Notes: generated by a model from the sequence alone, not told the origin. Positions 2,888 to 20,635 are shown, counted from the stretch's first letter. The stretch is 64,000 nucleotides of DNA from Gammaproteobacteria bacterium (GCA_963662545.2 CAXXLL010000003.1:1-64000); one strand, 5' to 3'. Numbers and translations: made by a program.

Positions 2888-4655
<1,768 letters not shown>

Positions 4656-4734
4656 CGAATTCGGGTCGCCCTGATACTAAACGGCCCCGCAGTGCGGGGC
4701 CGATAGTTTTGCAAGCTGCTTCGACGGACAAGCG

Positions 4735-5400: not shown

Positions 5401-5651
5401 ATAGGAATTCCTCTTGAATAAAGCGCGACGAACGCTCGATGGTTATTTGGACCACGCGTCCGTACTGTAAGTTTCTATATCGAATGATAGGGGCGAAACA
5501 TTAAATTTCAACTAAAACCATGCCTTTATGTGGCGTTTTTTATGCGATAACCTTGCTCGCGACGGCCACCGGGAGGCCGATTCCATGACGAATTCGGGGA
5601 CTTAAGGGGCCCGAAAGCGCCGCAAAGGGCGAATACGGTCAAAAAGTAATC

Positions 5652-5825
5652 GGAGAGGCGTTGGAGCAGTTGAATGCACTGGAGTTGAAATGCAGCAAGG
5701 GGTAGCACCCTTCGGGGGTTCGACAAACTCGCGAAAGCGAGTTTGGACGCTGCAGCGAAGCGGAGGCGCCCCGCAGGGGTGAGCGCGAGCCCAAGCTCGT
5801 GTGAATCAATCCCTCCTGGGCGCGA
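5652..5825 (+). pseudogene. Degenerate tRNA-Ser copy with an ~85-nt palindromic insertion in the T-loop
   Basis: Aligns to the adjacent tRNA-Ser up to GGGGGTTCGA, then an insert (5724-5808), then ATCCCTCC. Acceptor stem unpaired, no CCA. Confidence 0.8.
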
Positions 5826-5882
5826 TGCAACGTAGTCGTCTAAGTCGTCGCCGATGCGACTATTGCCGAAGGAAAAATTATC

Positions 5883-5972
5883 GGAGAGGTGGCAGAGCGG
5901 TTGAATGCACTGGTCTTGAAAACCAGCAAGGGTTAGCGCCCTTCGGGGGTTCGAATCCCTCCCTCTCCGCCA
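5883..5972 (+). tRNA. tRNA-Ser(TGA)
   Basis: 90 nt; GGAGAGG/CCTCTCC acceptor stem, CTGGT-CTTGAAA-ACCAG anticodon arm, long variable arm, GGTTCGAATCC, encoded CCA. Confidence 0.97.
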
Positions 5973-6024
5973 TAACATTCAGTAAGCTTCTGTTTTTACT
6001 GGATGAATGTCCGTAGGTCCAAAC

Positions 6025-6747: not shown

Positions 6748-6820
6748 ACGTCCGCTTTACCCGAAAGCAGCCATCACCGACGATGCGAATCCCACACTTG
6801 ACCATGACGGCTTACGGCCA
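6748..6820 (+). repeat. Palindrome cluster: ACGTCCGCTT-TACCCGA-AAGCAGCCAT plus the left half of the next site (ATGACGGCTT-ACGGCCA)
   Basis: The second site is completed by AAAGCGGACAT at 9409-9419, after the inserted element. Confidence 0.75.
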
Positions 6821-6944
6821 AGGGACTAAACCGCTCGCGCGGTAGGGGGAGGTTTCACCAGGCGTTAGCGATGGATTGACGGGAAGGGTCTGTCCCGTGT
6901 TGATGTTGGTTTGCGACATGCAACTCAACACAAGGAACAGACCC

Positions 6945-7835
6945 ATGACCCAGAACAAGCATTCTATCAGCCCGTTGCGTCAACGCATGCACGACGACAT
7001 GCGCCTTCGTAAGCTCTCTGAGAAAACACAGACAGCCTATATCCGTGCGGTCAAGAATTTCACCCGCTTTCTCGCCCGTTCTCCCGACACCGCCGGTAGC
7101 GAAGACCTGCGGCGTTATCAACTTCACATGGTCTCCACCGGCGTGTCTCGCACGACCATCAACGCCACCATCACCGGTTTGCACTTTTTCTTTGAGATCT
7201 CCCTCGAGCGGCCCGATGCGATGAAACGGATGAGTACCGTGCACGTGGAACGTAAGCTCCCGGTGGTCTTGAGCGGTGAGGAAGTTGCGCGCCTGTTACA
7301 AGCCGCGCCCGGCATCAAGTACCAGGCGGCGTTGTCGCTCGCCTATGGCGCCGGCCTTCGCGCCGGCGAGGGAGTCATGCTGAAAGTCACCGATATTGAC
7401 CGTGAGCGCAAGCTCCTGCGCGTCGAGCAGGGTAAGGGACGCAAGGACCGCTACGCTATGCTCTCACCGACCTTGCTCAAGGTGTTGCGCACCTGGTACC
7501 GCAGCGCTGCATCGCAGGGCAAGATGTGGCCCCACGGCTGGCTGTTCCCGGGGCAGAACCCCGTCAACCCTCTGACCACCCGCCAGCTCAACCGGGCCTG
7601 TCATGCGGCGGTGGACCTAGCGACCATCGATAAGCGCGTGTCGCTGCATACGCTGCGCCATTCATTCGCAACTCATTTACTTGAGCAGGGGGTCGACATC
7701 CGTGTGATCCAGGTGCTGCTCGGACACCAGAAGCTCGAGACCACCGCGCTGTACTCCCAGGTCGCCACGCGCACGCTTCGTGAGGTCGTGAGCCCACTGG
7801 AACATCTCACCCTGGAGTTGAGACCGCCCGCCTGA
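6945..7835 (+). CDS. Tyrosine recombinase/integrase with N-terminal SAM-like domain
   Basis: YGAGLR, GKGRKDR, HTLRHSFATHLLE, LLGH, TTALY; RBS AAGGA before ATG 6945. Confidence 0.93.
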   Translation: MTQNKHSISPLRQRMHDDMRLRKLSEKTQTAYIRAVKNFTRFLARSPDTAGSEDLRRYQLHMVSTGVSRTTINATITGLHFFFEISLERPDAMKRMSTVHVERKLPVVLSGEEVARLLQAAPGIKYQAALSLAYGAGLRAGEGVMLKVTDIDRERKLLRVEQGKGRKDRYAMLSPTLLKVLRTWYRSAASQGKMWPHGWLFPGQNPVNPLTTRQLNRACHAAVDLATIDKRVSLHTLRHSFATHLLEQGVDIRVIQVLLGHQKLETTALYSQVATRTLREVVSPLEHLTLELRPPA

Positions 7836-7848
7836 CCCGGCGGGTGAG

Positions 7849-9042
7849 GTGTCTCGGCAACCGCTCGAGGTCGCGGATATCTTCCGCGCCTACGGTCCGG
7901 CTTGGCGTCATGCGCACGCCGGACACCTCAGTCTCGGGCAGCTGAAGGTCATGTCGGCCATCGAGCGCTGTCGTAGCGCAGCGCTCGGCGGCCACGTTGT
8001 GCACTGCGACGCCTGTGACCACATCGAGATCGCCTACAACTCCTGCCGTAACAGGCACTGCCCGAAGTGCCAGGGCGCAGTGGCCAGGCAATGGCTTGCC
8101 GCGCGCGAAGCCGAGCTGCTACCGGTCGCGTACTTCCACGTCGTGTTCACGGTGCCGGCAGAGATCGGCAACCTCGCCTATCAGAACAAGGCCGTTATCT
8201 ACAACCTCTTGTTCAAAGCCGCCGCCGAGACCTTGCTCACCATCGGGGCCGATCCCAAACACCTCGGGGCACGCCTGGGGCTCACCGCCGTGCTGCATAC
8301 CTGGGGCTCGGCCATGACCCATCATCCCCATCTGCACTGCATCGTGCCTGGCGGCGGGCTCTCGCTCGACGGCGTGCGTTGGCTCGCCTGTCGGCCCAAC
8401 TTCTTCTTACCGGTGCGGGTGCTCTCGCGGTTGTTCCGACGCCTGTTCCTCGGCCAACTGGGTGAACTCCACGCGGGCGGACAGTTGGCCTTCTTCGGCC
8501 AATACCAGGGACTCGAAGACCCGCACGCCTTCGCCGAGTTCCTCACTGCGTTGCGTAAACGCGAGTGGGTCGTTGATGCCCGCCCGCCCTTCGCCGGACC
8601 CGCCGCGGTGCTCGAATACCTCGCCCGATATACCCACCGCGTCGCCATCGCTAACTCGCGTCTCATCACCTTCGACCAACAACGCGTGAGCTTCAAGTGG
8701 AAGGACTATCGCGCCCAGCAGGAGAACCGCTACAAGACCCTGTCGCTCGAGACCGGCGAGTTCATCCGCCGCTTCCTCATCCACGTCCTACCCCACGGCT
8801 TCCATCGCATTCGCCATTACGGGTTGTTCGCAAACGGCGGGCGCACCGAGAACCTCGCAAAGGTCCGCGCTCTGCTCGGCATCGAGACACCCCAAGATGT
8901 CAACGACAACGACAACACTGATGAGGCGACACCCGACTGGCTACGCTGTCCGTCCTGTGGAGGTGCGATGCACATCATCGACACCTTCGAGCCCGGTCAC
9001 GCGCCCTGTGCACCACCGCACCGCGGAGGCGACCCACCTTGA
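7849..9042 (+). CDS. IS91-family rolling-circle transposase with N-terminal Zn-binding domain
   Basis: YNSCRNRHCPKCQ, HPHLHC (HUH), YLARYTHR, RIRHYG. Confidence 0.93.
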   Translation: MSRQPLEVADIFRAYGPAWRHAHAGHLSLGQLKVMSAIERCRSAALGGHVVHCDACDHIEIAYNSCRNRHCPKCQGAVARQWLAAREAELLPVAYFHVVFTVPAEIGNLAYQNKAVIYNLLFKAAAETLLTIGADPKHLGARLGLTAVLHTWGSAMTHHPHLHCIVPGGGLSLDGVRWLACRPNFFLPVRVLSRLFRRLFLGQLGELHAGGQLAFFGQYQGLEDPHAFAEFLTALRKREWVVDARPPFAGPAAVLEYLARYTHRVAIANSRLITFDQQRVSFKWKDYRAQQENRYKTLSLETGEFIRRFLIHVLPHGFHRIRHYGLFANGGRTENLAKVRALLGIETPQDVNDNDNTDEATPDWLRCPSCGGAMHIIDTFEPGHAPCAPPHRGGDPP

Positions 9043-9691
9043 CCCTCGACCGTTCGAACTCGCCAGCCCACCAGCCCACAAATCGCCGCTTTACCACCGG
9101 CAACGTTACCGTCTTGCTTGGCGCCGTGACGAAACCACATAGCGGTACCGATCCCGCTCCTCAACGTCCGGTCACCCACCCACCTCATTGCACGCTGACC
9201 CGTTCTTGCCCGACACACCGCTTGCCGTTGGCTACCGATCATATCAATCCGAACAACGCCACCCTCAAATCCCCATAGCACCGTGCCGACCAACGCGCCG
9301 GCGTTCTTCTCCCGCGGTTTCCTCCCTTGAGGCTTGTCAGACGCCTGCCCCCACCCTCTCGACCCAGTCCGTCCACTGTCTACGGCAGGCATCTGACAAC
9401 CCTTAACAAAAGCGGACATGCCCGGTCTCGCGACATACTACCCCGGCGACCACACATCAATTTGGTTGAGGTCGAAGGTCGTGGCCGGTGGTCGCGCGCT
9501 TCACCCCGCCGTAGGTTTGTCTTGAAGCGTATTTCCTGCTTTTATGTCCCACTCTCGCGGCCCGCTGACGCACCCCATACGCACCCTGAGCGCTGGTCTC
9601 CGGCCGACGGCCAGAGCGACGGTGCCAAGTATAGGCGGCATTAACACCTCTTCCCCCCCACTTCACGTTAAACATCCGGCGAGTAGCAATT

Positions 9692-9889
9692 ATGGGTCGC
9701 CGCCAATTAGTGGAGTTCCATCCCCAAGCCGGCGGTGCACGTCGGTATTGCGAGGCGCTGCTGAAGCGTAGCGTATTGTGCAAAGAAACCCACAAGGATA
9801 CGGTTCGCTTCACCCCTCCGTTGGTGATCAGCAAAGACGAGGTCGATTGGGCGCTCGAGCGAATCGAGCCAGTGCTGCGAGAGAACTGA
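9692..9889 (+). pseudogene. rocD: C-terminal fragment of ornithine aminotransferase (class III)
   Basis: GGARRYCEAL...LCKETHKDTVRFTPPLVISKDEVDWALERI; the N-terminal part is absent. Confidence 0.75.
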
Positions 9890-10115
9890 CGGATAACAGA
9901 AAGGAAATCACGTTTGACATAAGAGGAGTTATACGCACCTCAAGTGTGAACCGCAGATTGTAGTGTCGGTTTTTCCTTCGCTGGAGACCCGACATGGACC
10001 CGAGAGTCACTGTAATAGTTCTTGCGACTGGAGTGAAACTCATCCGATGAGCATGTACTCACCTTGTCGCTGGAAACTTGTTCGCACATAGCTATACCCC
10101 ACGTTCGAGCAGCCG

Positions 10116-11060
10116 TTACCGGTCCAGTTCTTCCAGTACCTTCCCGAAGCTTTCGATGCTCTCAATCGTATTCGGCACCAGAGCCACCTGCAGGTGCGCG
10201 ATACCCTGCTGTGCGAAATCCCGGATGCCGGCGGCAATCTCCTGCGGCGAACCGGAAAGTGGCGTGGCTGTATCCGGCGCCATACTCAACGGTATCTTGC
10301 CTGTTCCGGTCGGGGCCACCTGGATGGAGATGGTGCGTTCCAGCGTCGCCGGATCCCGGCCCGCGTCACGGCATGCCGCATCGACGAGCTCACGCCGTGC
10401 CGGAACCTCGTCGGCGTTGCTGCGTTCGCTGCACAGCCAGGCATTCCACATCTGAACGTGCGGCACCGTGATACGCAACATGCGTTTGCCGGTTGAACCG
10501 ATCATGATTGGGGGCCCATTGGGGCGAGGGCCGCGCGGGCGCAGCTCGCAATCTCTGGCCGAGTAATAGGTGCCCTCGAAATCCACGGCACCGTCCACCA
10601 GCAGGCCGCGGATAATGGTAAAGGCCTCTTCAAAACGGGAGACCAGGCGATCGAACGGATAGCCGAAGGCACGGTATTCATCTCCGTGCCAGCCGGCACC
10701 GAGGCCGAGGATGATTCGTCCACCGGAGATCTCCTCCACCGTATCCACAATTTTGGCCAGCATGGCCGGGTTGCGGTACGAGGTAGGTGTCACCAGTGAG
10801 CCCAGTTCCACTCGTTCGGTTATGGCCGCGAGACCCGTGAGAATGGACCAGCATTCTCTTACGCCCTGCTGCTCGATGGTGGTCGCGTCGCCGCGATAAA
10901 GCAGGTGATCAACGAACCATATGGAGTCGATACCCATGTCCTCGATCAGTCGGGCCATGGCCACATAGTCGCTCCAGCCAGCAGTTTTGCCACCCATGTC
11001 CCACTCGGCCTCGGGGAGAACCAGGCCCAGTTTCAACGGTCGCTTCCTTTGTGAGTTCAT
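10116..11060 (-). CDS. LLM class flavin-dependent oxidoreductase
   Basis: DSIWFVDH, AAITERVELGSLV, RNPAMLAK, SGGRIILGLGAGW. Confidence 0.9.
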   Translation of the reverse strand: MNSQRKRPLKLGLVLPEAEWDMGGKTAGWSDYVAMARLIEDMGIDSIWFVDHLLYRGDATTIEQQGVRECWSILTGLAAITERVELGSLVTPTSYRNPAMLAKIVDTVEEISGGRIILGLGAGWHGDEYRAFGYPFDRLVSRFEEAFTIIRGLLVDGAVDFEGTYYSARDCELRPRGPRPNGPPIMIGSTGKRMLRITVPHVQMWNAWLCSERSNADEVPARRELVDAACRDAGRDPATLERTISIQVAPTGTGKIPLSMAPDTATPLSGSPQEIAAGIRDFAQQGIAHLQVALVPNTIESIESFGKVLEELDR

Positions 11061-11256
11061 CGTCTTCCCCCGGTCGATATTGGATGAGTACCTGCATCAC
11101 CATCTCAGAGCGTCGTAGTCTTATCGAATCTTTGACCTGACACGAAAATCCCTCGAGAAAGCAACGGCGATCGGACATGGCTTCTTCTCATAAATACGGC
11201 GGAATTATCGTGAGAAATCGAGCCACTGCCCTAGCAGAAGCCTACCAGCAGAATTC

Positions 11257-11455
11257 ATGGAGACTCAGACATCACTTCGCGAGGGGGTCGGCTCCGGCGG
11301 CGTTTCAGTGGCGATGGCAGAAGCGTGGCCCAACTTGTCGATCACGCTCGCTGACCTTCCCAGCACGGTCGCAGTTGCGGAGCGTTATATCAGCGAAGCT
11401 GGGCACAAGTCTCGCATTCAGTTGCGACCGACCGAGATTGGCGCCGAAAAGCTGA
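11257..11455 (+). pseudogene. Fragment of a SAM-dependent O-methyltransferase
   Basis: GVGSGGVSVAMAEAWPNLSITLADLP..VAERYISEAG..SRI resembles the Methyltransf_2 core; truncated at both ends. Confidence 0.6.
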
Positions 11456-11486
11456 AGGAACCTACGACGTAGCCATTATACGGGGT

Positions 11487-11756
11487 GTGATTCCCGTACT
11501 CTCCCCGGACCAGAACCAGGCTGCAGAAGATAGAGGCCGGTTCGACTTGATTATGCTGCAGGCATTTCGCGAAAGTGATATTCAATACCATCAAAAACGA
11601 TCACAAGCACTCGATGAAGATCACTGGTCTGCAACATACAGAACGATAGAATTCATCGTAAATACCGCTGGCGGAAGGGAATCTTGGGAGCGCCAAAAAA
11701 ACTTTGTAAGTAATTCTTTTCAAGACCTCGTGAACGAAATGCACAGAAATGCCTAG
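11487..11756 (+). pseudogene. 3' half of a hypothetical gene related to 15319-15876
   Basis: EDRGRF...YHQ...LDEDHW...GGRESW...FQDLVNE mirrors the C-terminal pattern of the 15319 protein. Confidence 0.5.
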
Positions 11757-11793
11757 CAAACTGATCGAATTGGAAGTCATGGTCGGCCGCTAA

Positions 11794-12103
11794 ATGTCCG
11801 CAAAGGGTCCAGACTGTGTGAAAACTCAAAAATACGACGACGAAATAAAAATATTCCCCACCAGCATAGTTGTTATGCCCCTCGAATAGGGATCGGCATT
11901 TCAATTAGATCCAATTTCGAGGGTAGTTCCCCCACTTTTGAAAAATGAAAATAGTTTTCACACACTCTGGGTCGTGAGCCGCCGCCTCGCGGCAATGCAG
12001 CATTGCTAAACGTTACGTCTTCTATGCGCCCGAAAGCGGTCGTCGAGTAGCATTGGGCGGAACGTTAGCGGAGCAGGACGGTTCTCGGCCAACAACAAAC
12101 GTT
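11794..12103 (+). repeat. Tripartite palindromic repeat, copy A (site 1 split by a MITE)
   Basis: ATGTCCGCAA-AGGGTC|GT-GAGCCGCC; ACGTCTTCTA-TGCGCCCGA-AAGCGGTCGT at 12015; AGGACGGTTC-TCGGCCA at 12075. Confidence 0.85.
11810..11969. mobile_element. 160-bp MITE, copy 1 (IS1182-like ends)
   Basis: TIR CAGACTGTGTGAAAACT / AGTTTTCACACACTCTG; GGTC on both flanks; near-identical to 15919-16078. Confidence 0.85.
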
Positions 12104-12117
12104 AAGTCCGTCGCGCT

Positions 12118-12260
12118 GTCTGTATAAAAATGGTTGACCGCCGGGCAGATCCTCGCGCTAAACTCCCGTCACCATGGAAATAAACACTGTTACTGGGTTT
12201 CTAAATGATGTTCGCCCGTTATTTTTATACGGACCGAGATAATTACTGTTCAGAGGTTCC
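12118..12260. repeat. Small IR-bounded element plus a solo IS/MITE end
   Basis: GTCTGTATAAAAAT (12118) / ATTTTTATACGGAC (12221-12234); TTCAGAGGTTCC at 12249-12260 matches the MITE end at 63127-63138. Confidence 0.5.
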
Positions 12261-12282
12261 TTAAAGGCGCAAGTCATCGTCA

Positions 12283-13188
12283 TCACGTCATCTGGACAAA
12301 CTGTTCAATCAGCGCCGACACCGTCTCCGGCGCATCCTCCTGTAGAAAATGCCCGACGCCAGGTAGCGTGACAACCGGCGCGTCGGGCCACAAATCTTTA
12401 AAACACCCGATGGTAAATGATTGAGGCAGCGCGCGGTCGGCCTCGCCGAACACCATCATGGCGGGCTTTTGCTTTACCGAAGCGACGGCCTCCGGCGTGC
12501 GGATGGATTTGAGGTAATCCACCGTTTCCCTGTCGGCGATACATTGCGGAAAGCGGTAGGCCGCTATACATGACTCAGGCGTTGGGAAGGGCGCGGCGTA
12601 GGCGCGAACCCAAGTCTCGTCGATATCGGCAGTGCGTTCGAAACCGACGCGTTTCATTACCGACAGCACGGTACTGTTCAAGTTGTGGATGGTCGGTTCA
12701 AAAGAAGGCCCGGCAACCCACACGGGCCACGGTGATGTGCTGAACACAGACGAGCTTTCCTTGGAGCGGCCACCGACAATCGCATTCATGACGCAAAGCC
12801 GTTTGACCCTTTCAGGGTGGCGGTATGCAACCGCACTGCCTATCGGCCCACCCCAGTCCTGCAGCACCAACGTCAGGTTGGTTAAATCAAGCTCGAGTAC
12901 CAGCTTGTCCAAATTCTCGCAGTGCTCTTCGATGGTGTATCGACGGTCCTGTGGCGTTTCGCTTTTGCCGAAGCCCATCTGATCCGGGACCACCACGCGG
13001 CCATGCCTCGCCAATCGTGGAATGATGTTCCGGTAGAGGTAGCCCCAGGTAGGTTCTCCGTGGACGCAAAGAAACGTCTCTGTGCCTTCGGGGTTTTCAT
13101 CCACGTAGTGCATCGCAAAGCCGTTGCCGTGGAAGAAATTCGGAGCAAACGGCCAGGTGCCGTCGAAGGTCTCGTGCGCTTCAATCAT
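12283..13188 (-). CDS. Alpha/beta hydrolase, haloalkane dehalogenase-like
   Basis: MHYVDE, HGEPTWGYLYR, PDQMGFGKS, QDWGG (Asp nucleophile), GHFLQED. Confidence 0.88.
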   Translation of the reverse strand: MIEAHETFDGTWPFAPNFFHGNGFAMHYVDENPEGTETFLCVHGEPTWGYLYRNIIPRLARHGRVVVPDQMGFGKSETPQDRRYTIEEHCENLDKLVLELDLTNLTLVLQDWGGPIGSAVAYRHPERVKRLCVMNAIVGGRSKESSSVFSTSPWPVWVAGPSFEPTIHNLNSTVLSVMKRVGFERTADIDETWVRAYAAPFPTPESCIAAYRFPQCIADRETVDYLKSIRTPEAVASVKQKPAMMVFGEADRALPQSFTIGCFKDLWPDAPVVTLPGVGHFLQEDAPETVSALIEQFVQMT

Positions 13189-13413
13189 GATTTAGTCGGT
13201 TCCTTCGGAAAAAAGGGTGATGGAGGGACGATATTCTCGTCAGGATTCGAATTCTAATCCCTCGGTCACCGAAATTTGAACGAAAACGATGACCTCCGGG
13301 CTTCCCAGTCTGCGCCCAGTTATGGGCGCCGCGACAACGGTGTTGCCCGCTTTGCTTACCGCCTTTCCGAAGGCCGCGCTGCTTTCTATTAGGGTAGTTG
13401 TCGAAATCGACGA

Positions 13414-13556
13414 ATGTCGCATAAGGGTCGGTAGCTGCCCTGTCGCCTCAGCGCAGCATTGCTAAGAATTACGTCTGCAATGTGCTCGTAAGCGGTCGTT
13501 CTGTAGCGTTTGGGCAGTGCGTTCTTGACTACGATGTTCTATCTCAAAAGCGACGT
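13414..13556 (+). repeat. Tripartite palindromic repeat, copy B (uninterrupted; site 3 degenerate)
   Basis: ATGTCGCATA-AGGGTCGG-TAGCTGCCCT; GCGCAGCATTGCTAAG linker; ACGTCTGCAA-TGTGCTCGT-AAGCGGTCGT at 13471. Confidence 0.85.
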
Positions 13557-13560
13557 CTAA

Positions 13561-13800
13561 ATGACCGTTGAACTGAAATTCTTCGACAAGCGAACCGATG
13601 TCGGAAACATTAGAAACCGAGCGTTCTACAGAACCTGCGGAACCCCAATATCGGAAACCACGACGGGGTATCCTGGTCAGATCTCCATAACGGTGGGTAC
13701 GCCGGATGATCCCCGATGTGCAATGCTCGATGCCAAGGAGCCCGCACTGGCTCGAGAGCGTCATTTGATTGAAGGGGTTCGAGAAGGCCCCGAGATTTAA
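13561..13800 (+). pseudogene. Fragment of a GFA/CENP-V family protein
   Basis: RAFYRTCGTPI...ISITVGTPDDP matches the GFA C-terminal half; the N-terminal Cys cluster is missing. Confidence 0.6.
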
Positions 13801-13825
13801 ATACCTGTTTCCAGAGTACGGATTA

Positions 13826-14485
13826 CTATGCGGCGGAGCGGGCTTCGGTGCCTTGATTCAACCGCGCCATCAGTTCGTCCGCGGTCAAGAGCTCCGAGAT
13901 ATAACCTTGCTTGAGGGTCTCGACAGTGTACTTGTGGATCATGGCCGCCGGTGTGCCGTCGTCGGTATCGAAAGTACAATTCAGATCGTCAACGAAGATC
14001 ACATCGTAGTCACGGTTGAATGCGTCGATCGAGGTCGTCATGCAGCAGAAGTTCGTCGCCATACCGATGACGATGCAAGTGTTACGTCCGCGGAAAGGCG
14101 GGTTGTTCATGACGACGTCGAGCTTGGTGTTCCAGAAGAGGCTGTACTTCGGTTTCGGAATGTAGACCTCGTATTCGTTGAAGGCGTCGGGCTTCAATTC
14201 GTCGACGAGTTCAACGCCCTTGGTTCCTGAATTCAGTGCAACGCCGTCGTAAATCGGCCCCCATCGATCGAGCAACGTACCTCTCATGTCGGTTGAGACG
14301 CCGTGCGCGATCGGGATCTTGTGGTCGCGCGCGAACTTGAGCAATTGCCCCATCTTGCCGTACATATCGCGGCCTTCGTCAATCACGAAAGGCTCGCCCT
14401 CTAGCAGGAAATCATTGATCATGTCGAGGCACAGGATGATAGCGTCGTCAACGAGGGGCTTGTTTGGAGCTATTCGGCTGTACAT
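13826..14485 (-). CDS. Isochorismatase/cysteine hydrolase family protein
   Basis: LDMINDF (Asp), PKPKYS (Lys), GMATNFCCMTTSIDAF (Cys). Confidence 0.88.
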   Translation of the reverse strand: MYSRIAPNKPLVDDAIILCLDMINDFLLEGEPFVIDEGRDMYGKMGQLLKFARDHKIPIAHGVSTDMRGTLLDRWGPIYDGVALNSGTKGVELVDELKPDAFNEYEVYIPKPKYSLFWNTKLDVVMNNPPFRGRNTCIVIGMATNFCCMTTSIDAFNRDYDVIFVDDLNCTFDTDDGTPAAMIHKYTVETLKQGYISELLTADELMARLNQGTEARSAA

Positions 14486-14612
14486 GGTGTGGTCGTCCTA
14501 TCGCGCATAGACCCTACAATCATAGTATGCGCGTCCCGATTATTCGACAAAGCGTCACCGTCGGTAACGAATCAAAACAGCAAGGATAACTAGATTTTCG
14601 TCCAGATCGGCG

Positions 14613-15259
14613 ATGACCGCTGGTGACGGTCAGAGAGGGCGCTATGGGGTGGCGGAGAGGCCCGTAGTACTGAGGAAGCCGGGTAATGCTGGTGGAGGGA
14701 AGGGGCCTTAGTTCAAGACGGGCACTGAAAGCGGCAAAGCACAGGAGATTGGGGCAACCCTAGGCAACTCCGGTAAGGTGCGGGCGCGGTGGAAGGCGTC
14801 ACATGTTGAAGCGAAGGAAGAACCCGGATTGCGATCTGGAAGCGAATGCCCACCCAAGTGGTGGCATTGGCGGTTGTGTGCAGAACGCTCGGTTCGTGCA
14901 CGCCGGGATACACGGCCCGGTGTGGTGGGTCGGGTGAACTGCGGATGACCTTTCGTGTGCCAAGGCATGAGTCTTGTCCGAGAGCCGGATGCGGTAGTTC
15001 CGCCTGTCCGGTTCGATGAGGAGGATGTGGAAACGGAGTGATGGTCCGGCTATTGAGGCACCGCCAGACGAAAGGGGCGGCAACAGATTGGCTGAACCTT
15101 AGACCACCGCGCCACATCCTTACTCTACCGTGAGCCGCCCCCTCGCGGCAGCGCAGCACAGCTAGAGATTAGGTCTGCAGTACCCCCGTAAGCGGTCGTG
15201 CAGTAGCTTTCAGTGGAGCGTTAGCTGAGCAGGACGGCTCTCGGCCACAACCGGACGTT
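14613..15259 (+). repeat. Tripartite palindromic repeat, copy C (site 1 split by a group II intron remnant)
   Basis: ATGACCGCTGG|...|CGTGAGCCGCC; AGGTCTGCAG-TACCCCCGT-AAGCGGTCGT at 15171; AGGACGGCTC-TCGGCCAC-AACCGGACGT at 15231. Confidence 0.85.
14624..15128 (+). ncRNA. ORF-less, 5'-truncated group II intron remnant (class E-like)
   Basis: DII/DIII-like GTGGCGGAGAGG..GAAGCCGGGTAATG..GGAGGGAAGGGGCC; DV GAGCCGGATGCG...GTCCGGTTC (14982-15014); extended DVI ending CTCTAC; only a decayed trace of the RT N-terminus (..EAKEEPG..). Confidence 0.8.
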
Positions 15260-15318
15260 CAAGTCCTCGACGCCCTCGGATATGCTGCCCGCTGGCTTCG
15301 CCAACGGGAGATTGAAAG

Positions 15319-15876
15319 ATGAACTGGGAAGCGGTAGGTGCAATTAGCGAAGGGGTCGGAGCCATTGCGGTCGTATTGACTCTCATATATCTCGCCATGC
15401 AGATCCGGCAGAACACTTCACAACAAAAGCGCGAAGAAATCGTCTCCGTTCAAGTTGGGCAAAACAAATTAGTCGAACAGCTTCAGGATCCGTCACTGGT
15501 GCGTGCGTACGTTCGGGTAACAGATGGCAACACTCCTGTCAGCACGGCTGACCGAGCAAGGACAATTTTCTGGGTCATACAATACATAAACCACTTCGAA
15601 ATAGTTTTTGACCTCTATCATGACGGGTCACTGGATGACGACCGTTACGAACACTGGGAATCGATTGCCGTTAGCGTTGTAGCGACCAAAGGTATACGGG
15701 CGTGGTGGGACGGTGAGTCAGGAAAACTCGCCTTCAGACCAAAAGTGCGCGATCTCATCGATCAAAAACTCAATGACGCCGAGAATCCGCCTACCCCGTT
15801 CAACAGAGGGTGGGAGATTATGAACCCCGAATCCTGGAGAGATGTCGAATTAGACGACGTTGCGAGAGGAACCTAA
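15319..15876 (+). CDS. Hypothetical protein with N-terminal TM anchor (MNWEAVGAI...TLIYLAxQIRQNT type)
   Basis: Intact 185-aa ORF with RBS GGGAG, located between repeat copies C and D. Confidence 0.8.
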   Translation: MNWEAVGAISEGVGAIAVVLTLIYLAMQIRQNTSQQKREEIVSVQVGQNKLVEQLQDPSLVRAYVRVTDGNTPVSTADRARTIFWVIQYINHFEIVFDLYHDGSLDDDRYEHWESIAVSVVATKGIRAWWDGESGKLAFRPKVRDLIDQKLNDAENPPTPFNRGWEIMNPESWRDVELDDVARGT

Positions 15877-15902
15877 ATCCAAACAATCTTGTGGAGTTAC
15901 CG

Positions 15903-16165
15903 TGATCCGCTCCGGGTCCAGACTGTGTGAAAACTCAAAAATACGACGACGAAATAAAAATATTCCCCACCAGCATAGTTGTTATGCCCCTCGAATAGGG
16001 ATCGGCATTTCAATTAGATCCAATTTCGAGGGTAGTTCCCCCACTTTTGAAAAATGAAAATAGTTTTCACACAGTCTGGGTCGGAAGCCGCCTAATTGAG
16101 GAAGCGCAGCACTGCTCTAGGTTCGGTCTGCAATGCGCTCAGAAGCGGTCGTCCAGTAGCGGACT
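15903..16165 (+). repeat. Palindromic repeat, copy D (site 1 split by a MITE; site 3 lost)
   Basis: TGATCCGCTC-CGGGTC|GG-AAGCCGCC; GCGCAGCACTGCT linker; CGGTCTGCAA-TGCGCTCAG-AAGCGGTCGT. Confidence 0.8.
15919..16078. mobile_element. 160-bp MITE, copy 2 (IS1182-like ends)
   Basis: Perfect TIR CAGACTGTGTGAAAACT / AGTTTTCACACAGTCTG; GGTC duplication. Confidence 0.85.
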
Positions 16166-16204
16166 TCACTAGCATGAGCTGGCGCGCTCTGCCATTAGGA
16201 CCCT

Positions 16205-16885
16205 TTAAAATTTCTCGACCCAGGGGCGTAGTTCAACTTCCCACGTCCACGCGCTGCGATGTTGTCGGTGAATATCCAGGTAGCTTTGGGCGATGGCGTC
16301 CGGATCGAGTTGCTCGTCACCACCGGGCGCTGCATCTGGACTCCTTATGCCACCATCGATCACGAAATGTGCGACGTGAATGCCGTGCGGCGCAAGTTCC
16401 CGCGCCGATGCTTGAGCCAGGCCACGCAAGCCGAACTTGCCCATTGCGAATGATGATGAGTTGGCGAATCCTTTGACGCTGGCGGACGCGCCGGTCATCA
16501 ACAAGCTGCCCGTTCCGCGTGCGAGCATGCGCTTGGCCGATTCCTGGGTTACCAAAAAACCGCCGTAACAAGTCACCAACAGCGCATCGCGCACGGCGCG
16601 GGCGTCTATCTCGGTGACTGGCCCACGGACTCGCGCGCTAGGATTATAGACAACGACGTCAGGGGTGCCGATATTGTCGTCGGCGCTGGCGAACATCTTT
16701 TGAACGTCAGCCGGATCCGACGCATCGCATGCTACGGTGATGGCCTCTGTTTGTTCCACCAACGCTTCGAGTTTGTCGGTGTTACGCGCCGCCAACATGA
16801 CCTGCATGCCGTTTGACCGAAACAGTCGCGCCAATGATGCACTCAAGCCGTCGCCGGCACCTATGATCAATGCTGATTCGCTCAT
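16205..16885 (-). CDS. Short-chain dehydrogenase/reductase
   Basis: IIGAGDGLS, TGASASVKG, FAMGKFGLRGLAQ, HVAHFVIDG. Confidence 0.9.
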   Translation of the reverse strand: MSESALIIGAGDGLSASLARLFRSNGMQVMLAARNTDKLEALVEQTEAITVACDASDPADVQKMFASADDNIGTPDVVVYNPSARVRGPVTEIDARAVRDALLVTCYGGFLVTQESAKRMLARGTGSLLMTGASASVKGFANSSSFAMGKFGLRGLAQASARELAPHGIHVAHFVIDGGIRSPDAAPGGDEQLDPDAIAQSYLDIHRQHRSAWTWEVELRPWVEKF

Positions 16886-16971
16886 ATGTCCCCCTCAAAA
16901 TTTCTAAATACACGGATGCGTTCTCTTTATCCTATCCTCCCGCCTGTCGTTCATAAATGACCATCCAGACC

Positions 16972-18120
16972 TAAATAGGTGTTCCAAAAACTCGATCAAA
17001 TAAAAAGAACTGAGGTGACATTCAGAGATCAGAGGTTGTATCGAGCAATCTACGTTCCCGAAAGAGGTCACCTGAGTATGGATAGTTTAGTGTCATTGAC
17101 GCGCTCACAGAAACGTCGCTTTAAGCGGTTGATTCAACGCAGCGATAACGGGCGGGTGGTTCGCCGCGCTCAAGTCCTGTTGCAGTTAGCTTCAGGCGTC
17201 TCACCGACGGCCGTGTCACGCAGTTTGTCGGTCGCGCGTTCAACGGTTTATCGATGGGTCACGCAATTCCAGACCGCGGGTGAAGCCTTTCTCGAGGCGT
17301 GCGGCTCGGGCCGGCGGGCGTATACGGTGGATGACACCCTGTTGGAGACGCTCGCCGAGTTAGTTGAGCAGCCGCCCAGTGATTATGGCTACCTGCGCAG
17401 TACGTGGACGAGCGAGATGCTGGCCGAGACGCTGAATTCGTTGCTGTCACGGCCCATTCACGCCTCTACGGTACGTCGCTGGCTAGTTAATTTGGGATTC
17501 GGCTGGCGTCGTGCTCGTCCGACCTTACATCTGCGCGACCCACGGGCAGCCACGCGCCTGAAAGCCATTCATCGTGCGTTGTCTCGAGCCCCATCGGGGC
17601 ATGAAGTGTTTTACGCCGATGAGGTCGATATCGACCTCAATCCCAAAATCGGTTTCCTTTGGTCTACTCAAGGTTGTCAACGTGCCATCCCCACGCCTGG
17701 GCAAAACCGGAAACGCTATCTGGCGAGCGCGCTGCACGCACGAACCGGTCGCGTTGCGTATGTCGAGGGCACACGGAAAAACAGCGACCTGTTCCTTTGC
17801 CTGCTCGACCACCTGCGGCAAACTTACCGCGCCGCGCGTCGAATTATCTTGATCGTGGATAACTACATCATCCACAAATGTCGCTTGGCACACGTCTGGC
17901 TAAAGCACAATCCGAAATTCCGATTGCTGTTCCAGCCGGCCTGTCAGCCCTGGGTCAATGACATTGAGAAACTCTGGAAACAGTTGCACGACAATGTCAC
18001 CCGGAATCATCGTTACTCGACCATCGACCGTCTGATGGACGCAGTACGTGCCTTCATGCGTGCGGCAAGTCCATTCCCGGGAAACTGCCCGAGTGTCGCA
18101 AGATTTGGATCACCTATTTA
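16972..18120 (+). mobile_element. IS630-family insertion sequence
   Basis: TA-AATAGGTG / CACCTATT-TA ends with TA duplication in a CTAG target. Confidence 0.88.
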
Positions 18121-18121
18121 G
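17078..18121 (+). CDS. IS630-family transposase
   Basis: HTH N-terminus; YADE, VDNYIIHK, NDIEKLW DDE motifs; start uncertain. Confidence 0.88.
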   Translation: MDSLVSLTRSQKRRFKRLIQRSDNGRVVRRAQVLLQLASGVSPTAVSRSLSVARSTVYRWVTQFQTAGEAFLEACGSGRRAYTVDDTLLETLAELVEQPPSDYGYLRSTWTSEMLAETLNSLLSRPIHASTVRRWLVNLGFGWRRARPTLHLRDPRAATRLKAIHRALSRAPSGHEVFYADEVDIDLNPKIGFLWSTQGCQRAIPTPGQNRKRYLASALHARTGRVAYVEGTRKNSDLFLCLLDHLRQTYRAARRIILIVDNYIIHKCRLAHVWLKHNPKFRLLFQPACQPWVNDIEKLWKQLHDNVTRNHRYSTIDRLMDAVRAFMRAASPFPGNCPSVARFGSPI

Positions 18122-18233
18122 TCAGGCTGCCTTTCGGATATATTGTCAGCGTCAGGTTTTTCAAAGCAAAAAGAAACCGGCCAAAGCTGGTTCTACGAGC
18201 TACGGAGGATGCCCCAACTATTCGTGACCCGGA

Positions 18234-18267
18234 GTGTCCGAAATGGGTCTATTGTGTTGAAAAAGTC
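18234..18267 (+). repeat. Left half of a GGGTC-type palindrome followed by an IS-end-like sequence
   Basis: GTGTCCGAAA-TGGGTC then TATTGTGTTGAAAAAGTC (resembles the MITE end); cut off by IS6. Confidence 0.55.
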
Positions 18268-18286
18268 GTACGGCATACGATTTTGA

Positions 18287-19084
18287 GGTTCTGTCAGGTT
18301 GGCGCCGGATCGCGGACAATTAACGCATGGCAGAAGCTCCTAATTATCGCGGATATCGATTTCCGCCTGAAATCATCGCGCGGTCGGTGTGGTTGTACCA
18401 TCGTTTTACGCTCAGCTTTCGCGATATCGAAGACCTTTTAGCCGAGCGCGGCGTGACGGTTTCGTATGAAACTATCCGCCAGTGGTGTCTGACGTTTGGA
18501 CCCGATTACACTCGCCGAATTAGGAAACATCAGGGGCCTTGCGGCGACTGTTGGTTTCTCGATGAGGTCGTCGTCTCAATTCAAGGAAAGCGTCGTTACC
18601 TTTGGCGAGCCGTGGACCAAGACGGCGATCTGATTGAGATCCTCGTACAAAAACGCAAGGATACTAAAGCCGCTAAGCGCTTCTTTCGAAAGGCGCTACG
18701 CTCACAAACAGCCGTTCCTATCGAGATAACAACCGATAAGCTCCGTAGTTACGCCTCAGCCAAACGCGAGGTAATGCCGTCCGTGCCACACTGCCAAGAT
18801 CACTATGCGAATAACCGCGCGGAAGTTTCACACGAGCCGACGCGGGAACAAGAAAGGCAGATGCGCGGGTTTCGATCGGACGGACACGCGCAGCGCTTTC
18901 TAAGCGTCCACGGTCAAGTCAACAATCTGTTTCGCCTCGGTCGTCATCTCCTCAGAGCGAAGAACTATCGTGAACTACGCTCCAAGGCATTTCTCACTTG
19001 GTCGGAGGTGACATGCGCCTGCTGATTGACGATGATTCTACTTGCTCGAAAGATCGGGCCTGCGCGCAACAACCTGACAAAACC
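18287..19084 (+). mobile_element. IS6-family insertion sequence, no target duplication
   Basis: TIR GGTTCTGTCAGGTT / AACCTGACAAAACC; flanks GATTTTGA vs CAAGTGCG differ. Confidence 0.9.
18327..19025 (+). CDS. IS6-family transposase
   Basis: YRFPPEII, LSFRDIEDLLAERG, WFLDE, YLWRAVD, NNRAEVSH. Confidence 0.93.
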   Translation: MAEAPNYRGYRFPPEIIARSVWLYHRFTLSFRDIEDLLAERGVTVSYETIRQWCLTFGPDYTRRIRKHQGPCGDCWFLDEVVVSIQGKRRYLWRAVDQDGDLIEILVQKRKDTKAAKRFFRKALRSQTAVPIEITTDKLRSYASAKREVMPSVPHCQDHYANNRAEVSHEPTREQERQMRGFRSDGHAQRFLSVHGQVNNLFRLGRHLLRAKNYRELRSKAFLTWSEVTCAC

Positions 19085-19199
19085 CAAGTGCGGCCATAAG
19101 ATGAATCGCGAGCGCTACCTAAGAAGCGAGCGAGTCCGACGCGTGACATTAGAAAGGACCGTACTGAGCACATTTGAGACGATATAGACGCGATTCTGA

Positions 19200-19270
19200 G
19201 CGTCAGCTTTCCCGTAAGCCGACGGTCGCTTTGCATCAAGCTACAGCCGGGTTCGGTCATTAGCGGTCAG
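19200..19270 (+). repeat. Degenerate palindrome pair of the island repeat family
   Basis: GCGTCAGCTT-TCCCGT-AAGCCGACGG and ..TTCGGTCAT-TAGCGGTCA. Confidence 0.45.
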
Positions 19271-19584
19271 CAGGGTTCTCCCGACTCAGGTTCGCTATTC
19301 AGGCCAACATCGCATCGAAGCACAGATTGACCACTGTTTGATGACCTGGGGATACTCGATGCACTTGGGGAAAAGACCTTTTATTCTGCCTATACTCCGA
19401 TCGAAGTTCATCGGCGTGGCGTTTGGCCTGTGGCTTGCAGAACTGGAGCCCGGTCGCAGCGGCGCTTGTGAGGGACCAGGAGTGAGGAGATACGTCCCGA
19501 TATTTGGACCACAAATTTCCTTTTTTTCCTAGAGCTGTCGTGTTCGCGCGGATCTAGAGGTAATTACGTCGGAAGGAGGGTGAT

Positions 19585-20358
19585 ATGGACCTTGGTTTAA
19601 AAGACCGCGTAGCGGTCATTACTGGAGCGAGCTATGGGCTGGGCGAGGCCATGGCCCAGCGCCTAGTCAAAGAGGGAGCACGAGTCGTTATCTGCGCGCG
19701 CGGCGAGGAGCAATTGAACCGTACTGCACAAGCTCTGGGTCCCAACGCACTAGCAATCCAGGCTGATGTGAGCAAGGCGGCAGACATCACACAACTTTTT
19801 GATAGCACTGTGAAGCACTTCGGCAAACTTGACATCCTGGTCAACAATGCTGGCTGGTATCACCTGAGCCAAGGACTGGATCTATCCGACAAGGAGTGGC
19901 AGGACAATCTTGATATCAACCTGTTCAGCGTGATTCGCTGTTCGCGGCTTGCCGTTCCCCTGATGCAGAAACAGAAATGGGGTCGGATTGTCAATATTTC
20001 TTCGATCTTCGGCAAACAGCCTAACGCGGGCTTGATCGACTACAACACCACCAAAGCAGCAGTTATCAGTCTCACCAAAACCCTGGCCGACGAGTTGGCC
20101 AAGGAAAACATACTGGTCAACGCAGTCTGTCCAGGACCAACGCGTACGCCATTGTGGGATGGTCTGGCCAAGACGTTTAATCCTGACGATCCGGATGGCA
20201 TGATTAATGACTTTGCCGCCGCGAATATTCCGCTAGGCCGGTTTGGCCGCCCTGAGGAGATTGCCGACCTGGTTGCGTTTCTGTCCTCAGAACGGGCTAG
20301 CTTTATCACTGGTGCAGCTTATGACATCGACGGCGGGATGGTGAAGAATATGGCGTAG
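19585..20358 (+). CDS. Short-chain dehydrogenase/reductase (FabG-like)
   Basis: TGASYGLG, LVNNAG, YNTTK, VNAVCPG, IDGG; RBS GGAGG. Confidence 0.92.
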   Translation: MDLGLKDRVAVITGASYGLGEAMAQRLVKEGARVVICARGEEQLNRTAQALGPNALAIQADVSKAADITQLFDSTVKHFGKLDILVNNAGWYHLSQGLDLSDKEWQDNLDINLFSVIRCSRLAVPLMQKQKWGRIVNISSIFGKQPNAGLIDYNTTKAAVISLTKTLADELAKENILVNAVCPGPTRTPLWDGLAKTFNPDDPDGMINDFAAANIPLGRFGRPEEIADLVAFLSSERASFITGAAYDIDGGMVKNMA

Positions 20359-20465
20359 GAGTGAGCTGCCATCAGAAAACTGGACCAGTTCGTAGGGGCA
20401 GGTCAGATCCACCCGTTTCTTCCCGACTGTTCGAGCAGGAACTAACCGTTGCGGAGTTTGTAGTG

Positions 20466-20538: not shown

Positions 20539-20635
20539 CGGCGGTTGCCAGATACGGTCGAAAATTAGAATCGACATCTGTAAGAACAAGTCTGAGTTTT
20601 TACACCTGAGTTCTAGATTAGAAGCTCGATCCTGC

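Follow-up and report, generated by a model that had tools for sequence, protein, structure and literature searches.

Three unrelated parasite lineages integrate almost exclusively in the spacers of paired inverted sites of a chromosomal cassette array

The 64,000-nt window, that is the whole stretch of DNA analysed, covers a portion of a chromosomal array made up of gene cassettes and, between them, a conserved 124-nt unit; parasites of three unrelated lineages integrate almost exclusively in the spacers of the sites at the ends of these units. The whole is best explained, with a probability of roughly 0.6, as a cassette array with paired inverted core sites to which the three lineages have homed. 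An earlier note on the same DNA had suggested that three transposition chemistries meet on one small palindrome, and the convergence of DDE transposition (IS1182 family), group II intron retrohoming and the tyrosine-recombinase/HUH machinery of IS91 elements on the spacers of one site family was borne out. The idea of a single palindrome stood only in part; there is one palindromic site family, but it comprises two related, inverted sites, of which the DDE elements use both, the intron site 1 and the integrase+IS91 elements site 2.

The unit family and its arrays

A search with nhmmer of the host genome, that of a marine bacterium, revealed 121 copies of the 124-nt unit, all co-oriented within 11 arrays (an array being at least three co-oriented units) that span 346 kb of 5.58 Mb (6.2%). 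The unit length is fixed, the distance from GGTC to GGCC being constant across units, and its ends are formed by two inverted, related sites of ~26 bp, giving the consensus termini GGGTCGTC.../...CGGCCAA. Site 1 consists of an a-arm ATGnCCGCTT (core GnCCGCT), a spacer of 8–10 bp with GGTC at its centre and a b-arm AGCSGCC, and site 2 is its mirror image with GGCC as the spacer centre. The cassettes in between are mostly single-gene and 0.5–2.5 kb long, with no bias in ORF orientation (41 versus 31, longest ORF in 72 cassettes of at most 2.5 kb).

Insertions at the site spacers

When analysing the window (all features on the plus strand), two 160-bp elements were found inside the sequence ...CCGC-N-GGGTC^GTsAGCCGCC of site 1 with GGTC duplicated, as the earlier note had read them. 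The first (11810..11969, GGTC repeats 11806–11809 and 11970–11973) is preceded by the left arm and spacer half of unit A site 1, ATGTCCGCAAAGGGTC (11794..11809), ending in the left GGTC duplication, and followed by the 124-nt core of unit A up to the GGCC of site 2 plus the right arm (11970..12105; nhmmer match 11968–12092, E 2.2e-28). The second (15919..16078, repeats 15915–15918 and 16079–16082) occupies site 1 of unit D, which retains only its first 85 positions, the second half being degenerate (16079..16161; nhmmer 16077–16161). For this latter element, contigs joining 15913 to 16078 and skipping 164 bases (the element plus 4) are present in three of four public runs (X16, X18 and X19). 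The 160-bp elements are MITEs, since they share their ends with an IS, duplicate GGTC, lack coding capacity, are multi-copy and have an empty allele. Their terminal inverted repeats are 17 bp (CAGAsTGTGTGAAAACT), and genome-wide there are 21 full or near-full copies with at least 19 distinct left flanks.

The related IS, 1685 bp long with 18-bp inverted ends, belongs to the IS1182 family, its transposase (Pfam DUF772, DDE_Tnp_1 and DDE_Tnp_1_6) matching the family model NF033551 with 466.5 bits against a cut-off of 270, and terminal inverted repeats being present. The 14 full-length copies, which occur in both orientations, all lie in site context between 4-bp GGTC/GACC repeats, and among the 14 IS1690 copies at least 12 left flanks are distinct, one left flank being common to three copies. 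Altogether one IS and at least four MITE families occupy the exact spacer centre with 4-bp duplications. The IS-end-like sequence noticed earlier behind GGGTC at 18250 proved to be the left end of a third MITE family (TATTGTGTTGAAAAAGTC..., 18250..18286); it comes after another site 1 of which the left arm and half the spacer are present, GTGTCCGAAATGGGTC (18235..18249, GGGTC at 18245–18249), and is cut, like the array itself, by an IS6-family element (18287..19085). A related MITE is found at site 2 in genome G001.

As the earlier note had proposed, flanks were collected genome-wide and compared with background, and the signal was much stronger than in the window. Elements of IS1182 type were present in 39 of the 111 copies of site 1 and in 14 of the 94 copies of site 2. 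The genome contains 54,924 GGTC and 34,539 GGCC tetranucleotides, only 205 of which are unit site centres; ends of this type at 53 unit sites, against ~0.14 expected if any GGTC or GGCC were used, thus exceed chance. Identical 4-bp flanks were seen in 54 elements (GACC in 25, GGTC in 16, GGCC in 13), and arm-like flanks, read by eye from the printed sequences, surround all 51 paired elements and 7 single ends.

It could be argued that this targeting is secondary, segmental duplication or gene conversion having multiplied one or a few insertions along with their units, or insertions being tolerated only in dispensable regions. Duplicates do exist: positions 8971–14621 of the window recur at the end of contig C2, and C2 and C3 have a block of two cassettes in common; the left flank shared by three IS1690 copies points the same way, and the arrays, 6.2% of the genome, contain 21 of the 149 copies of other IS families, an enrichment of ~2.3-fold. 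However, the distinct left flanks, the two orientations and the separate 4-bp duplication of each element, together with the MITE-free allele and insertions at orphan palindromes distant from the arrays, make such an origin highly improbable. The ten other IS families used as a control (149 full-length copies) have no end within 15 nt of any site, and none of their 21 copies inside arrays touches one; an IS630-family copy within a cassette (16970..18121), away from the unit sites, serves as an internal control in the window.

The second lineage is represented by a 506-nt, ORF-less group II intron (14623..15128) located between GGT and C of unit C site 1. It is followed by CGTGAGCCGCC, the bases following GGGT in unit A, as had been noted before, and by the remainder of unit C up to site 2 and the right arm (15129..15262; nhmmer 15129–15247, E 1.2e-28). 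A match to domains V–VI lies at 14980–15128 (Rfam Intron_gpII, plus strand, 36.1 bits, E 3.4e-5, under the gathering score of 40), and no Rfam family for D1–D4 matched. The genome holds three copies of the intron representing two independent events, and in every copy the 3' exon starts at the C of GGTC. The 5' junctions lack the expected GGGT, in the window following the left arm cgatgaccgctg (14611..14622); retrohoming was therefore not clean. In a paralogous copy at the end of contig C2, gatgaccgctatGGGTC is retained and a MITE stands in place of the intron. A related full-length intron, encoding a reverse transcriptase-maturase in domain IV, exists in G070, where contig C274 aligns to intron bases 1–204 and 331–506 (75–80%) around ~1.2 kb encoding a 443-aa RVT_1+GIIM protein, and where the ends (5' GTGACGG..., 3' ...CTCTAC) match those of the 506-nt intron. 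No GIIM gene was found in G000.

The third lineage splits the site 2 of the first unit in the array, in agreement with the earlier reading. This degenerate unit (6750..6820), missed by nhmmer and compared by eye with the unit consensus, consists of a left arm GTCCGCTT, a 6-nt centre and the unit second half, with the left half of site 2, GGCTTACGGCCA, at its end; the element (6821..9407) is inserted after GGCCA, and the right arm AAAAGCGGACAT follows at 9408..9419. It encodes an integrase (int, 6927–7835; Phage_integrase with a SAM-like N domain) and a transposase (tnpA, 7849–9042) of the IS91 family, a Y2 HUH enzyme with an N-terminal zinc domain (Zn_Tnp_IS91, PF14319, and Y2_Tnp, PF04986; NCBIfam IS91 model NF033538, 429.5 bits against 125). 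Five junction-distinct insertions of two sub-families were found, all after CGGCCA, one standing in tandem behind another. The IS91 family usually has a tetranucleotide target, which is absent from the flanks of these copies. Relatives with 54–68% protein identity occur in other Proteobacteria, and when these were inspected by eye a left flank CGGCCA[AG]^ was seen at five loci and a right flank of the type ^A..GC[AG]G at about a dozen. The integrase is probably the enzyme of the parasite and not that of the cassette system, because this query retrieved no IS91 transposase from the other two unit-holding genomes of the genus, G001 (89% complete) and G002 (95%).

Cassette boundaries and the nature of the sites

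Cassettes are exchanged by crossover at the site spacers, because identity between species begins and ends at the spacer centres. Four cassettes common to different species are 92–100% identical while the flanking units drop to about 45–80%, and in all four junctions resolved at base level (the comparison covers these four cassettes and four junctions) identity breaks ~5–8 nt or less from the GGCC or GGTC centre. The earlier proposal that the site is abundant and functional is thereby sustained, and the identity breaks lend the cassette idea independent support. Neighbouring cassettes of G001 are dispersed among different arrays of G000, and identical cassettes are present in three G000 arrays. 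One block shared by two duplicated cassettes in G000 begins within the upstream unit (~positions 20–55), not at a site centre. The segments of the unit show linkage equilibrium, which means that units are also shuffled by homologous recombination or gene conversion.

These observations bear on a reading of the units as intergenic repeats of a selfish or structural kind, similar to REP/BIME or MITEs, with ordinary genes in between, no cassette system, and elements that evolved to recognise an abundant repeat. The ~26-bp terminal inverted repeats and fixed length are MITE-like, the unbiased ORF orientation is unlike that of integron cassettes, and REPs are documented IS targets (PMC1525189). Yet the units are concentrated in 11 co-oriented arrays and not dispersed, for which reason a REP/BIME assignment was rejected, and neither the near-identical cassettes amid diverged units, with breaks at site centres, nor the reshuffling between G001 and G000 arrays would be expected; we regard this reading as improbable.

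The earlier note further proposed that the site is extruded as a hairpin. If so, the sites would act as single-stranded hairpins or extruded cruciforms like attC, with parasites and cassette recombinase recognising structure. HUH enzymes do act on single strands, the consensus arms are complementary (G.CCGCT / AGCGG.C), and the integrase of the IS91 elements has IntI4 as its nearest relative among solved structures, although it lacks the IntI-specific insert. The arms are, however, palindromic in the consensus only, with 57% of arm cells Watson-Crick in the best register and the central pair in 28 of 77 units, and more than one Watson-Crick type is seen only at one arm pair (11–28) and two flanking positions. 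No covariation was found between outer arms (5.96 of 10 within a unit, 6.02 across a cassette, 5.82 at random) or among unit columns, RNAalifold gave no consensus structure for the units, and single-unit folds are inconsistent (z about -1.5). Folding of the empty site is weak (-3.8 and -2.8 kcal/mol, z -0.5 and 0.1), the first value being that of the uninterrupted site 1 of unit B, ATGTCGCATAAGGGTCGGTAGCTGCC (13414..13445, z -0.52), which had rightly been picked out as empty and belongs to a unit with a degenerate site 2 (13425–13513, nhmmer). The targets of relatives give some encouragement, as group IIC-attC introns use attC sites (PMC3001079), some IS1182-family members target palindromes according to a review cited in PMC4923244, and IS1272/TnSha1 of this family use hairpin-forming targets (PMC4923244). 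The present element shares the preference for inverted repeats, but IS1272 is described as having no primary-sequence specificity, cutting the stem bluntly and deleting part of the target (PMC4923244), whereas here one sequence family is used and the central 4 bp are duplicated. Extrusion thus appears unlikely, and a double-stranded recombinase core site, by analogy with Acinetobacter dif modules, would fit better.

Relation to known systems and a possible exchange system

An attC site is an imperfect, folding palindrome with terminal R''/R' cores, RYYYAAC ... GTTRRRY. The units do not belong to this class, because the true integrons of the genome, with two IntI genes above the TIGR02249 cut-off (C2:996723 and C3:1527239), use a different 110-bp attC (adjoining 108–111-bp repeats RCCTAAC...GTTAGGY); no units were found near these genes with nhmmer, no IntI gene adjoins the unit arrays, and the unit consensus contains no RYYYAAC/GTTRRRY cores. 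A classical attC identity was rejected on these grounds and because the units show no fold and the cassettes are not co-oriented, so that the attC analogy drawn earlier survives in logic only: arrays of mostly single-gene cassettes resemble integrons, and a repeated cassette-junction site offers a safe harbour to a group II intron and an IS, much as integron attC hosts group IIC-attC introns and IS1111-attC elements (PMC3001079). As abundant intergenic palindromic repeats that are IS hot spots the sites also recall REPs, for which Tobes and Pareja (2006, PMC1525189) describe several IS with high target selectivity, among them ISPpu9 and ISPpu10, assigned to the IS110 family by later papers; REPs, though, are short, dispersed and bound no exchangeable cassettes, while here DDE, retro-element and HUH/tyrosine elements converge.

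The closest resemblance is to Acinetobacter dif modules, which have pdif (XerC-XerD) sites in inverse orientation at their two ends (PMC10132070, PMC13141974); IS1202-family IS target these sites (PMC10132070). Both have discrete gene modules between inversely oriented sites of two half-sites, shuffled between replicons, with a dedicated IS family at a fixed offset within the site, and here too the sites are inverted and identity ends at them. The present system differs in being chromosomal, in its 121 sites, in having the same non-coding unit as every second module, in spacers that differ within a unit and in its parasites (IS1182, group II intron and IS91 instead of IS1202). XerCD is not an obvious candidate, as the host canonical dif, a single dif-like match at C2:2180004, has no arm in common with site 1 or site 2.

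We suggest that the sites serve a putative recombinase as double-stranded recombination sites of the core type, with a half-site on either side of a spacer and an organisation like that of the inversely oriented pdif sites. Since the two spacers differ, a pair of independent crossovers could swap each cassette without losing it. The IS1182-family IS and MITEs cut the exact centre of the spacer with a 4-bp stagger, the intron is placed at GGT^C and the integrase+IS91 element at GGCCA^. Homing may have arisen because the parasite enzymes favour palindromic, protein-bent or transiently unpaired DNA, because insertion in a site spares genes, and because the site exists in many copies and moves with the mobile cassettes.

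Tentatively, and at somewhat less than even odds, the sites may mark a previously undescribed, integron-independent chromosomal cassette-exchange system, in which unit modules alternate with cassettes and paired site-specific crossovers are made by an enzyme that is neither IntI nor canonical XerCD, with its own guild of site-specific parasites. If so, it would be a natural counterpart of recombinase-mediated cassette exchange and would support a guild made up of IS1182 elements with their MITEs, a group II intron, and the integrase+IS91 elements. These last would recognise related palindromes with a GGCC centre in alpha-, beta- and gammaproteobacteria.

Units and the sites that bound them

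Five copies of a 124-nt unit occur between 6750 and 18290 on the plus strand of the window: a degenerate unit at 6750-6820, unit A at 11970-12105, unit B from 13414, whose site at 13414-13445 is intact and uninterrupted, unit C at 15129-15262 and unit D at 16079-16161. They are separated by one-gene blocks encoding a luciferase-like monooxygenase, an alpha/beta hydrolase, an isochorismatase, an unknown ORF and a short-chain dehydrogenase. The window units served to build an nhmmer profile, and after its refinement a search of the 5.58-Mb assembly of the genome under study (G000, three contigs) gave 121 unit copies, organised in 11 arrays of 3 to 39 co-oriented units each and covering 346 kb. 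BLAST revealed units in both of the other two genomes of the genus (G001 and G002) and in none of 28 further relatives, and nhmmer searches of 25 loci around relatives of the integrase treated below gave no unit, only small palindromes of the same type. Neither such units nor target sites of integrase+IS91 elements are described in the open-access literature searched. At the gathering threshold Rfam identified only two tRNAs in the window.

The unit consensus, read after in-silico removal of inserted elements, runs from a left arm gATGtCCGCTt through yGGGTCGTcAGCsGCC, a conserved core and ~35 variable bases to CGGCt.tCGGCCAa.AGCGGnCAT. Its right end is an inverted counterpart of the left (ATGnCCGCT-nTT-GGCC-GAG-AGCCGCC versus ATGnCCGCT-tyG-GGTC-GTC-AGCGGCC) and so every unit has an inverted pair of related sites as its boundaries, each built of an outer a-arm, a spacer of ~8-10 bp with the centre GGTC in site 1 and GGCC in site 2, and an inner b-arm. 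The spacing from the left-end GGTC to the right-end GGCC is constant within the unit, and the site-2 consensus lies at an identical offset in most units.

A compact palindrome at window 6750-6775, GTCCGCTT-TACCCG-AAAGCAGCCAT, has the left arm joined straight to right-arm-like sequence and resembles a site without the first 75 nt of the unit; four orphan palindromes of similar build are found elsewhere (e.g. C3:1262223), all with an IS or a MITE. ORFs of 100 and 125 aa without Pfam match are located at 13462-13764 and 9457-9834, both on the minus strand, the former overlapping unit B and possibly not a gene. The whole array-bearing island is bracketed by a 5976-bp inverted duplication (window 1-5976 and 20980-26954, 99.98% identical) with a tRNA gene at the end of each copy (5883-5969, plus strand; 20986-21072, minus strand); the duplication is either genuine or was produced by misassembly where the contig starts. 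At its end, contig C2 (C2:2559278-2591134) carries a reversed variant copy of the window array (compared with window 8971-20996), 100% identical over 4459 bp and followed by an extra unit and cassette block between two copies of a 1685-bp IS; it may represent an insertion at site 1 resembling a composite transposon, or else an alternative allele that entered the assembly twice.

Elements inserted in the site spacers

The earlier note had reported that unrelated mobile elements, namely two MITEs, an intron 3' end, an IS-type end after GGGTC and an integrase+IS91 element, all interrupt the spacer of one palindrome that is empty in unit B. All five observations were recovered at their places, and the pattern is confirmed and generalised genome-wide. 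The 160-bp MITEs, at 11810-11969 and 15919-16078, each have a GGTC duplication around them within ...CCGC-N-GGGTC|GTsAGCCGCC, and the IS-type end at 18250-18286, truncated by an IS6 copy, directly follows GGGTC. The MITE ends (17-18 bp) are shared with the 1685-bp IS, whose 478-aa protein reaches 466.5 bits with the IS1182-family model (cut-off 270) and matches DUF772/DDE_Tnp_1 in Pfam, and a second IS, 66%-related to it, encodes a 480-aa homologue. All 14 full-length copies of the 1685-bp IS are found in the context GGGTC|...|GGTCG, 12 in one orientation and 2 in the other.

Searching the genome for the end pattern gave 137 matches, 109 of them with GGTC, GACC or GGCC flanks; these form 51 pairs and 7 single ends, with a site-1- or site-2-like arm at every one when the flanks were read by eye, and the other 28, singletons with unrelated flanks, were taken as chance matches of a loose pattern. 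The MITEs belong to at least four families, CAGAsTGTGTGAAAACT (160 bp, 21 full or near-full matches), CAGGCTGTCCGAAAACT (5 copies), TATTsTGTTGAAAAAGT (6 copies) and GAGGCTGTGTCAAAAGT (159 bp, 10 pairs), and the end type goes with the spacer, CAG-starting ends being at GGTC and GAG-starting ends at GGCC. Identical 4-bp flanks were seen in 54 elements (GACC 25, GGTC 16, GGCC 13), and the duplicated tetranucleotide is the exact spacer centre. Elements occupy 39 of the 111 units with a site-1 end and 14 of the 94 with a site-2 end, and the few that lie away from profile-detected units occupy compact orphan palindromes similar in type. In G001, two units carry a related MITE end after the GGCC or GACC of site 2.

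Among public sequencing runs with contigs holding the locus, three out of four join 15913 to 16078, skipping 164 bases that equal the MITE and one GGTC, and in the fourth the MITE at 15919-16078 is present; as contigs, these data show that the empty form exists and are silent on its frequency. All runs are short-read contigs, which break at repeats, and joints between units of different arrays, most likely from paralogues or other organisms, were left out.

G000 contains 54,924 GGTC and 34,539 GGCC tetranucleotides, only 205 of which are centres of unit sites. Under random tetranucleotide use ~0.14 of some 60 elements would be expected in unit sites, against 53 seen. Of the 149 full-length copies of ten other IS families, among them 19 of the IS630 type also seen in the window, none has an end within 15 nt of a site centre; 13 of the 14 copies of the 1685-bp IS do have one. 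Since 21 of those other copies are inside arrays and none is at a site, regional tolerance of insertions fails to explain the pattern and was rejected. That the elements were merely copied along with the units was likewise rejected, the 14 IS copies having at least 12 distinct left flanks, both orientations and a duplication of their own per copy. The genome is very IS-rich in general, with a 1.72-kb IS in 47 full-length copies and several others in 10-19 copies each. Another type of IS, 1385 bp long (ends ...AATCTGTCCC...), directly adjoins site 2, behind TGCCA, at C2:2583487-2584871 and in a duplicate at C3:915004-916388, its other three copies being elsewhere; one duplicated event out of five copies was considered too few to call it site-targeting.

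The 506-nt element at 14623-15128 matches with its last 149 nt the Rfam model of group II intron domains V-VI (36.1 bits, E 3.4e-5), a score just under the gathering score and seen at the E-value threshold only. G070, whose genus is a different one of the family, has a relative that matches bases 1-204 and 331-506; the ~1.2 kb between these parts codes for a 443-aa protein containing RVT_1 and GIIM domains, and the ends of the relative are the same (GTGACGG... and ...CTCTAC). The window element is therefore predicted to be derived from a true group II intron and to have lost the ORF. A search of the G000 assembly (96.85% complete) gave no maturase gene, and the location of the G070 copy is unlike a unit site. 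G000 harbours three copies of the 506-nt intron, two of which have a common upstream flank, giving two independent events. The 3' exon starts at the C of GGTC in all three (CGTGAGCCGCC in the window copy, CGTCAGCGGCC and CGATAGCCGCC); on the 5' side the junctions, gaccgctg| and ggagaccg|, are irregular and lack GGGT. In the runs X15, X16, X18 and X19 contigs cover the 5' end portion of the intron (window 14482-14712) 30- to 400-fold more deeply than the cassettes on either side, and loose ends are numerous there. Those samples are therefore rich in related introns, which other organisms may carry; the excess, most likely due to paralogues or other organisms, was left out of account.

The 2587-bp element at 6821-9407, encoding a tyrosine recombinase and an IS91-family transposase, is situated between GGCTTACGGCCA and AAAAGCGGACAT. 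Such elements form two sub-families in G000, 68% identical in DNA, with five junction-distinct insertions: the window copy and C3:923403 (left flank in common, right flanks different), C2:623541, C2:613111, C2:1616790 and C2:627524, the last in tandem directly behind another copy. All insertions are after CGGCCA and before A(n)nAGCGGnC, with no base lost or duplicated. The integrase is catalytically intact by alignment and the closest solved structure is the integron integrase IntI4 (E 1e-34), the IntI-specific insert being absent. Relatives with 54-68% protein identity are found in alpha-, beta- and gammaproteobacterial isolates and MAGs, and read by eye their right flank is of the type |A..GC[AG]G..C in about a dozen loci and |CA.AGCGGTCAT in the Devosia-type copies; the left flank is CGGCCA[AG]| in five loci. 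Just left of the element in a locus from a beta-proteobacterial MAG (L042) there is a 45-nt mini-unit with site-1-like (atggctgctgtGGGTCGTGAG) and site-2-like (CGGCCAA) sequences, and at a distance of 3 kb an intact GACCGCTG...CAGCGGTC palindrome occurs, hinting at related junction sites far outside the genus. Taken with the flanks of the relatives, the mini-unit and the palindromes indicate that the target preference belongs to this IS91 clade rather than being a local accident. The integrase was also considered as the recombinase of the system, the insertions being at the first to third unit of an array in four out of five cases, but the IS91 transposase was not found with the query used in G001 or G002, though both have units, and the element is therefore regarded as another parasite and not as the engine of the system.

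Cassette exchange and the form of the site

Four cassettes common to G000 and G001 or G002 are 92-100% identical, with identity dropping to ~45-80% in the flanking units. Two of them were aligned base by base, and at all four junctions near-identity gives way to divergence no more than ~5-8 nt from the centre, GGCC on the left and GGTC on the right; hand alignments were used here, Megablast having matched four out of nine cassettes with alignments that ran into similar units and gave uninformative offsets. These breaks make the parasite-attracting spacers the cassette crossover points, in agreement with the earlier suggestion that the insertions lend independent support to cassettes. Neighbouring cassettes of G001 have their counterparts in separate G000 arrays and three G000 arrays share a 1889-nt cassette; cassettes are mobile as discrete modules. 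Homologous exchange also happens, since in two within-G000 duplicates the common block starts inside the upstream unit and unit segments are in linkage equilibrium. A fixed crossover inside the unit was rejected, with r ~0 in Mantel tests between unit segments and variable left boundaries of within-genome duplicates. The orientation of cassette genes is unbiased (41 vs 31), which fits modules bounded by inverted sites, unlike integron cassettes.

Convergence of the elements on a functional site stands, but its proposed extrusion as a hairpin found no backing in folding and covariation tests. In the best arm register 57% of the cells are Watson-Crick, the central pair pairs in 28 of 77 units, and more than one Watson-Crick type is seen only at the central arm pair and two flanking positions. 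The outer arms showed no covariation within the unit or across the cassette (p 0.18 and 0.13) and there are no covarying paired columns in the unit, mutual information consisting only of sub-family blocks in positions 93-126. RNAalifold gave no consensus fold of the unit, the folds of eighteen single units were inconsistent (z from 0.2 to -2.9) and unit B's empty site, with -3.8 and -2.8 kcal/mol, was no better than shuffles. Introns and HUH enzymes can, however, use single strands, which would suit a hairpin. Passages of PMC4923244 report that IS1182-family elements prefer hairpin-forming or palindromic targets, and on these two grounds a site acting as a hairpin, although unlikely, keeps about a quarter of the odds.

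Relation to attC, Tn3 and dif sites

Units were rejected as integron attC sites. Both integron integrases above the TIGR02249 cut-off in G000 (C2:996723-997664 and C3:1527239-1528180) are far from any unit and adjoin a different repeat type, the classical 108-111-bp RCCTAAC...GTTAGGY attC repeats (arrays C2:983668-995548 and C3:1524820), so classical integron arrays and unit arrays coexist in the genome. The first 40 nt of the unit are reminiscent of a Tn3-family terminal repeat, and this candidate was dropped with no Tn3-family transposase (PF01526) in the genome. According to PMC10132070, the pdif sites bounding Acinetobacter dif modules have a dedicated IS family. The G000 sites, with two half-sites around an 8-10-bp spacer, staggered 4-bp cuts at the centre and alternating orientation, have an anatomy closest to that of these pdif sites. 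The host dif at C2:2180004 is unrelated to the unit sites and XerCD is therefore no obvious candidate for the recombinase.

Site-specific parasites of a recombination site are a known kind of phenomenon, IIC-attC introns and IS1111-attC elements marking attC and IS1202 elements marking pdif, and the cassette system to which the parasites point here may be new. Functional recombination sites are reliably marked out by their specialised parasites, and in this genome three chemistries mark a site family outside both the attC and the pdif systems. If the recombinase is found, this would add to the natural gene-cassette platforms a third kind, large (121 junctions) and chromosomal, and would come with an IS1182-family transposase with a defined 26-bp target and an integrase+IS91 clade with a target conserved across Proteobacteria, both of which would help in grasping target choice and possibly serve as site-specific insertion tools.
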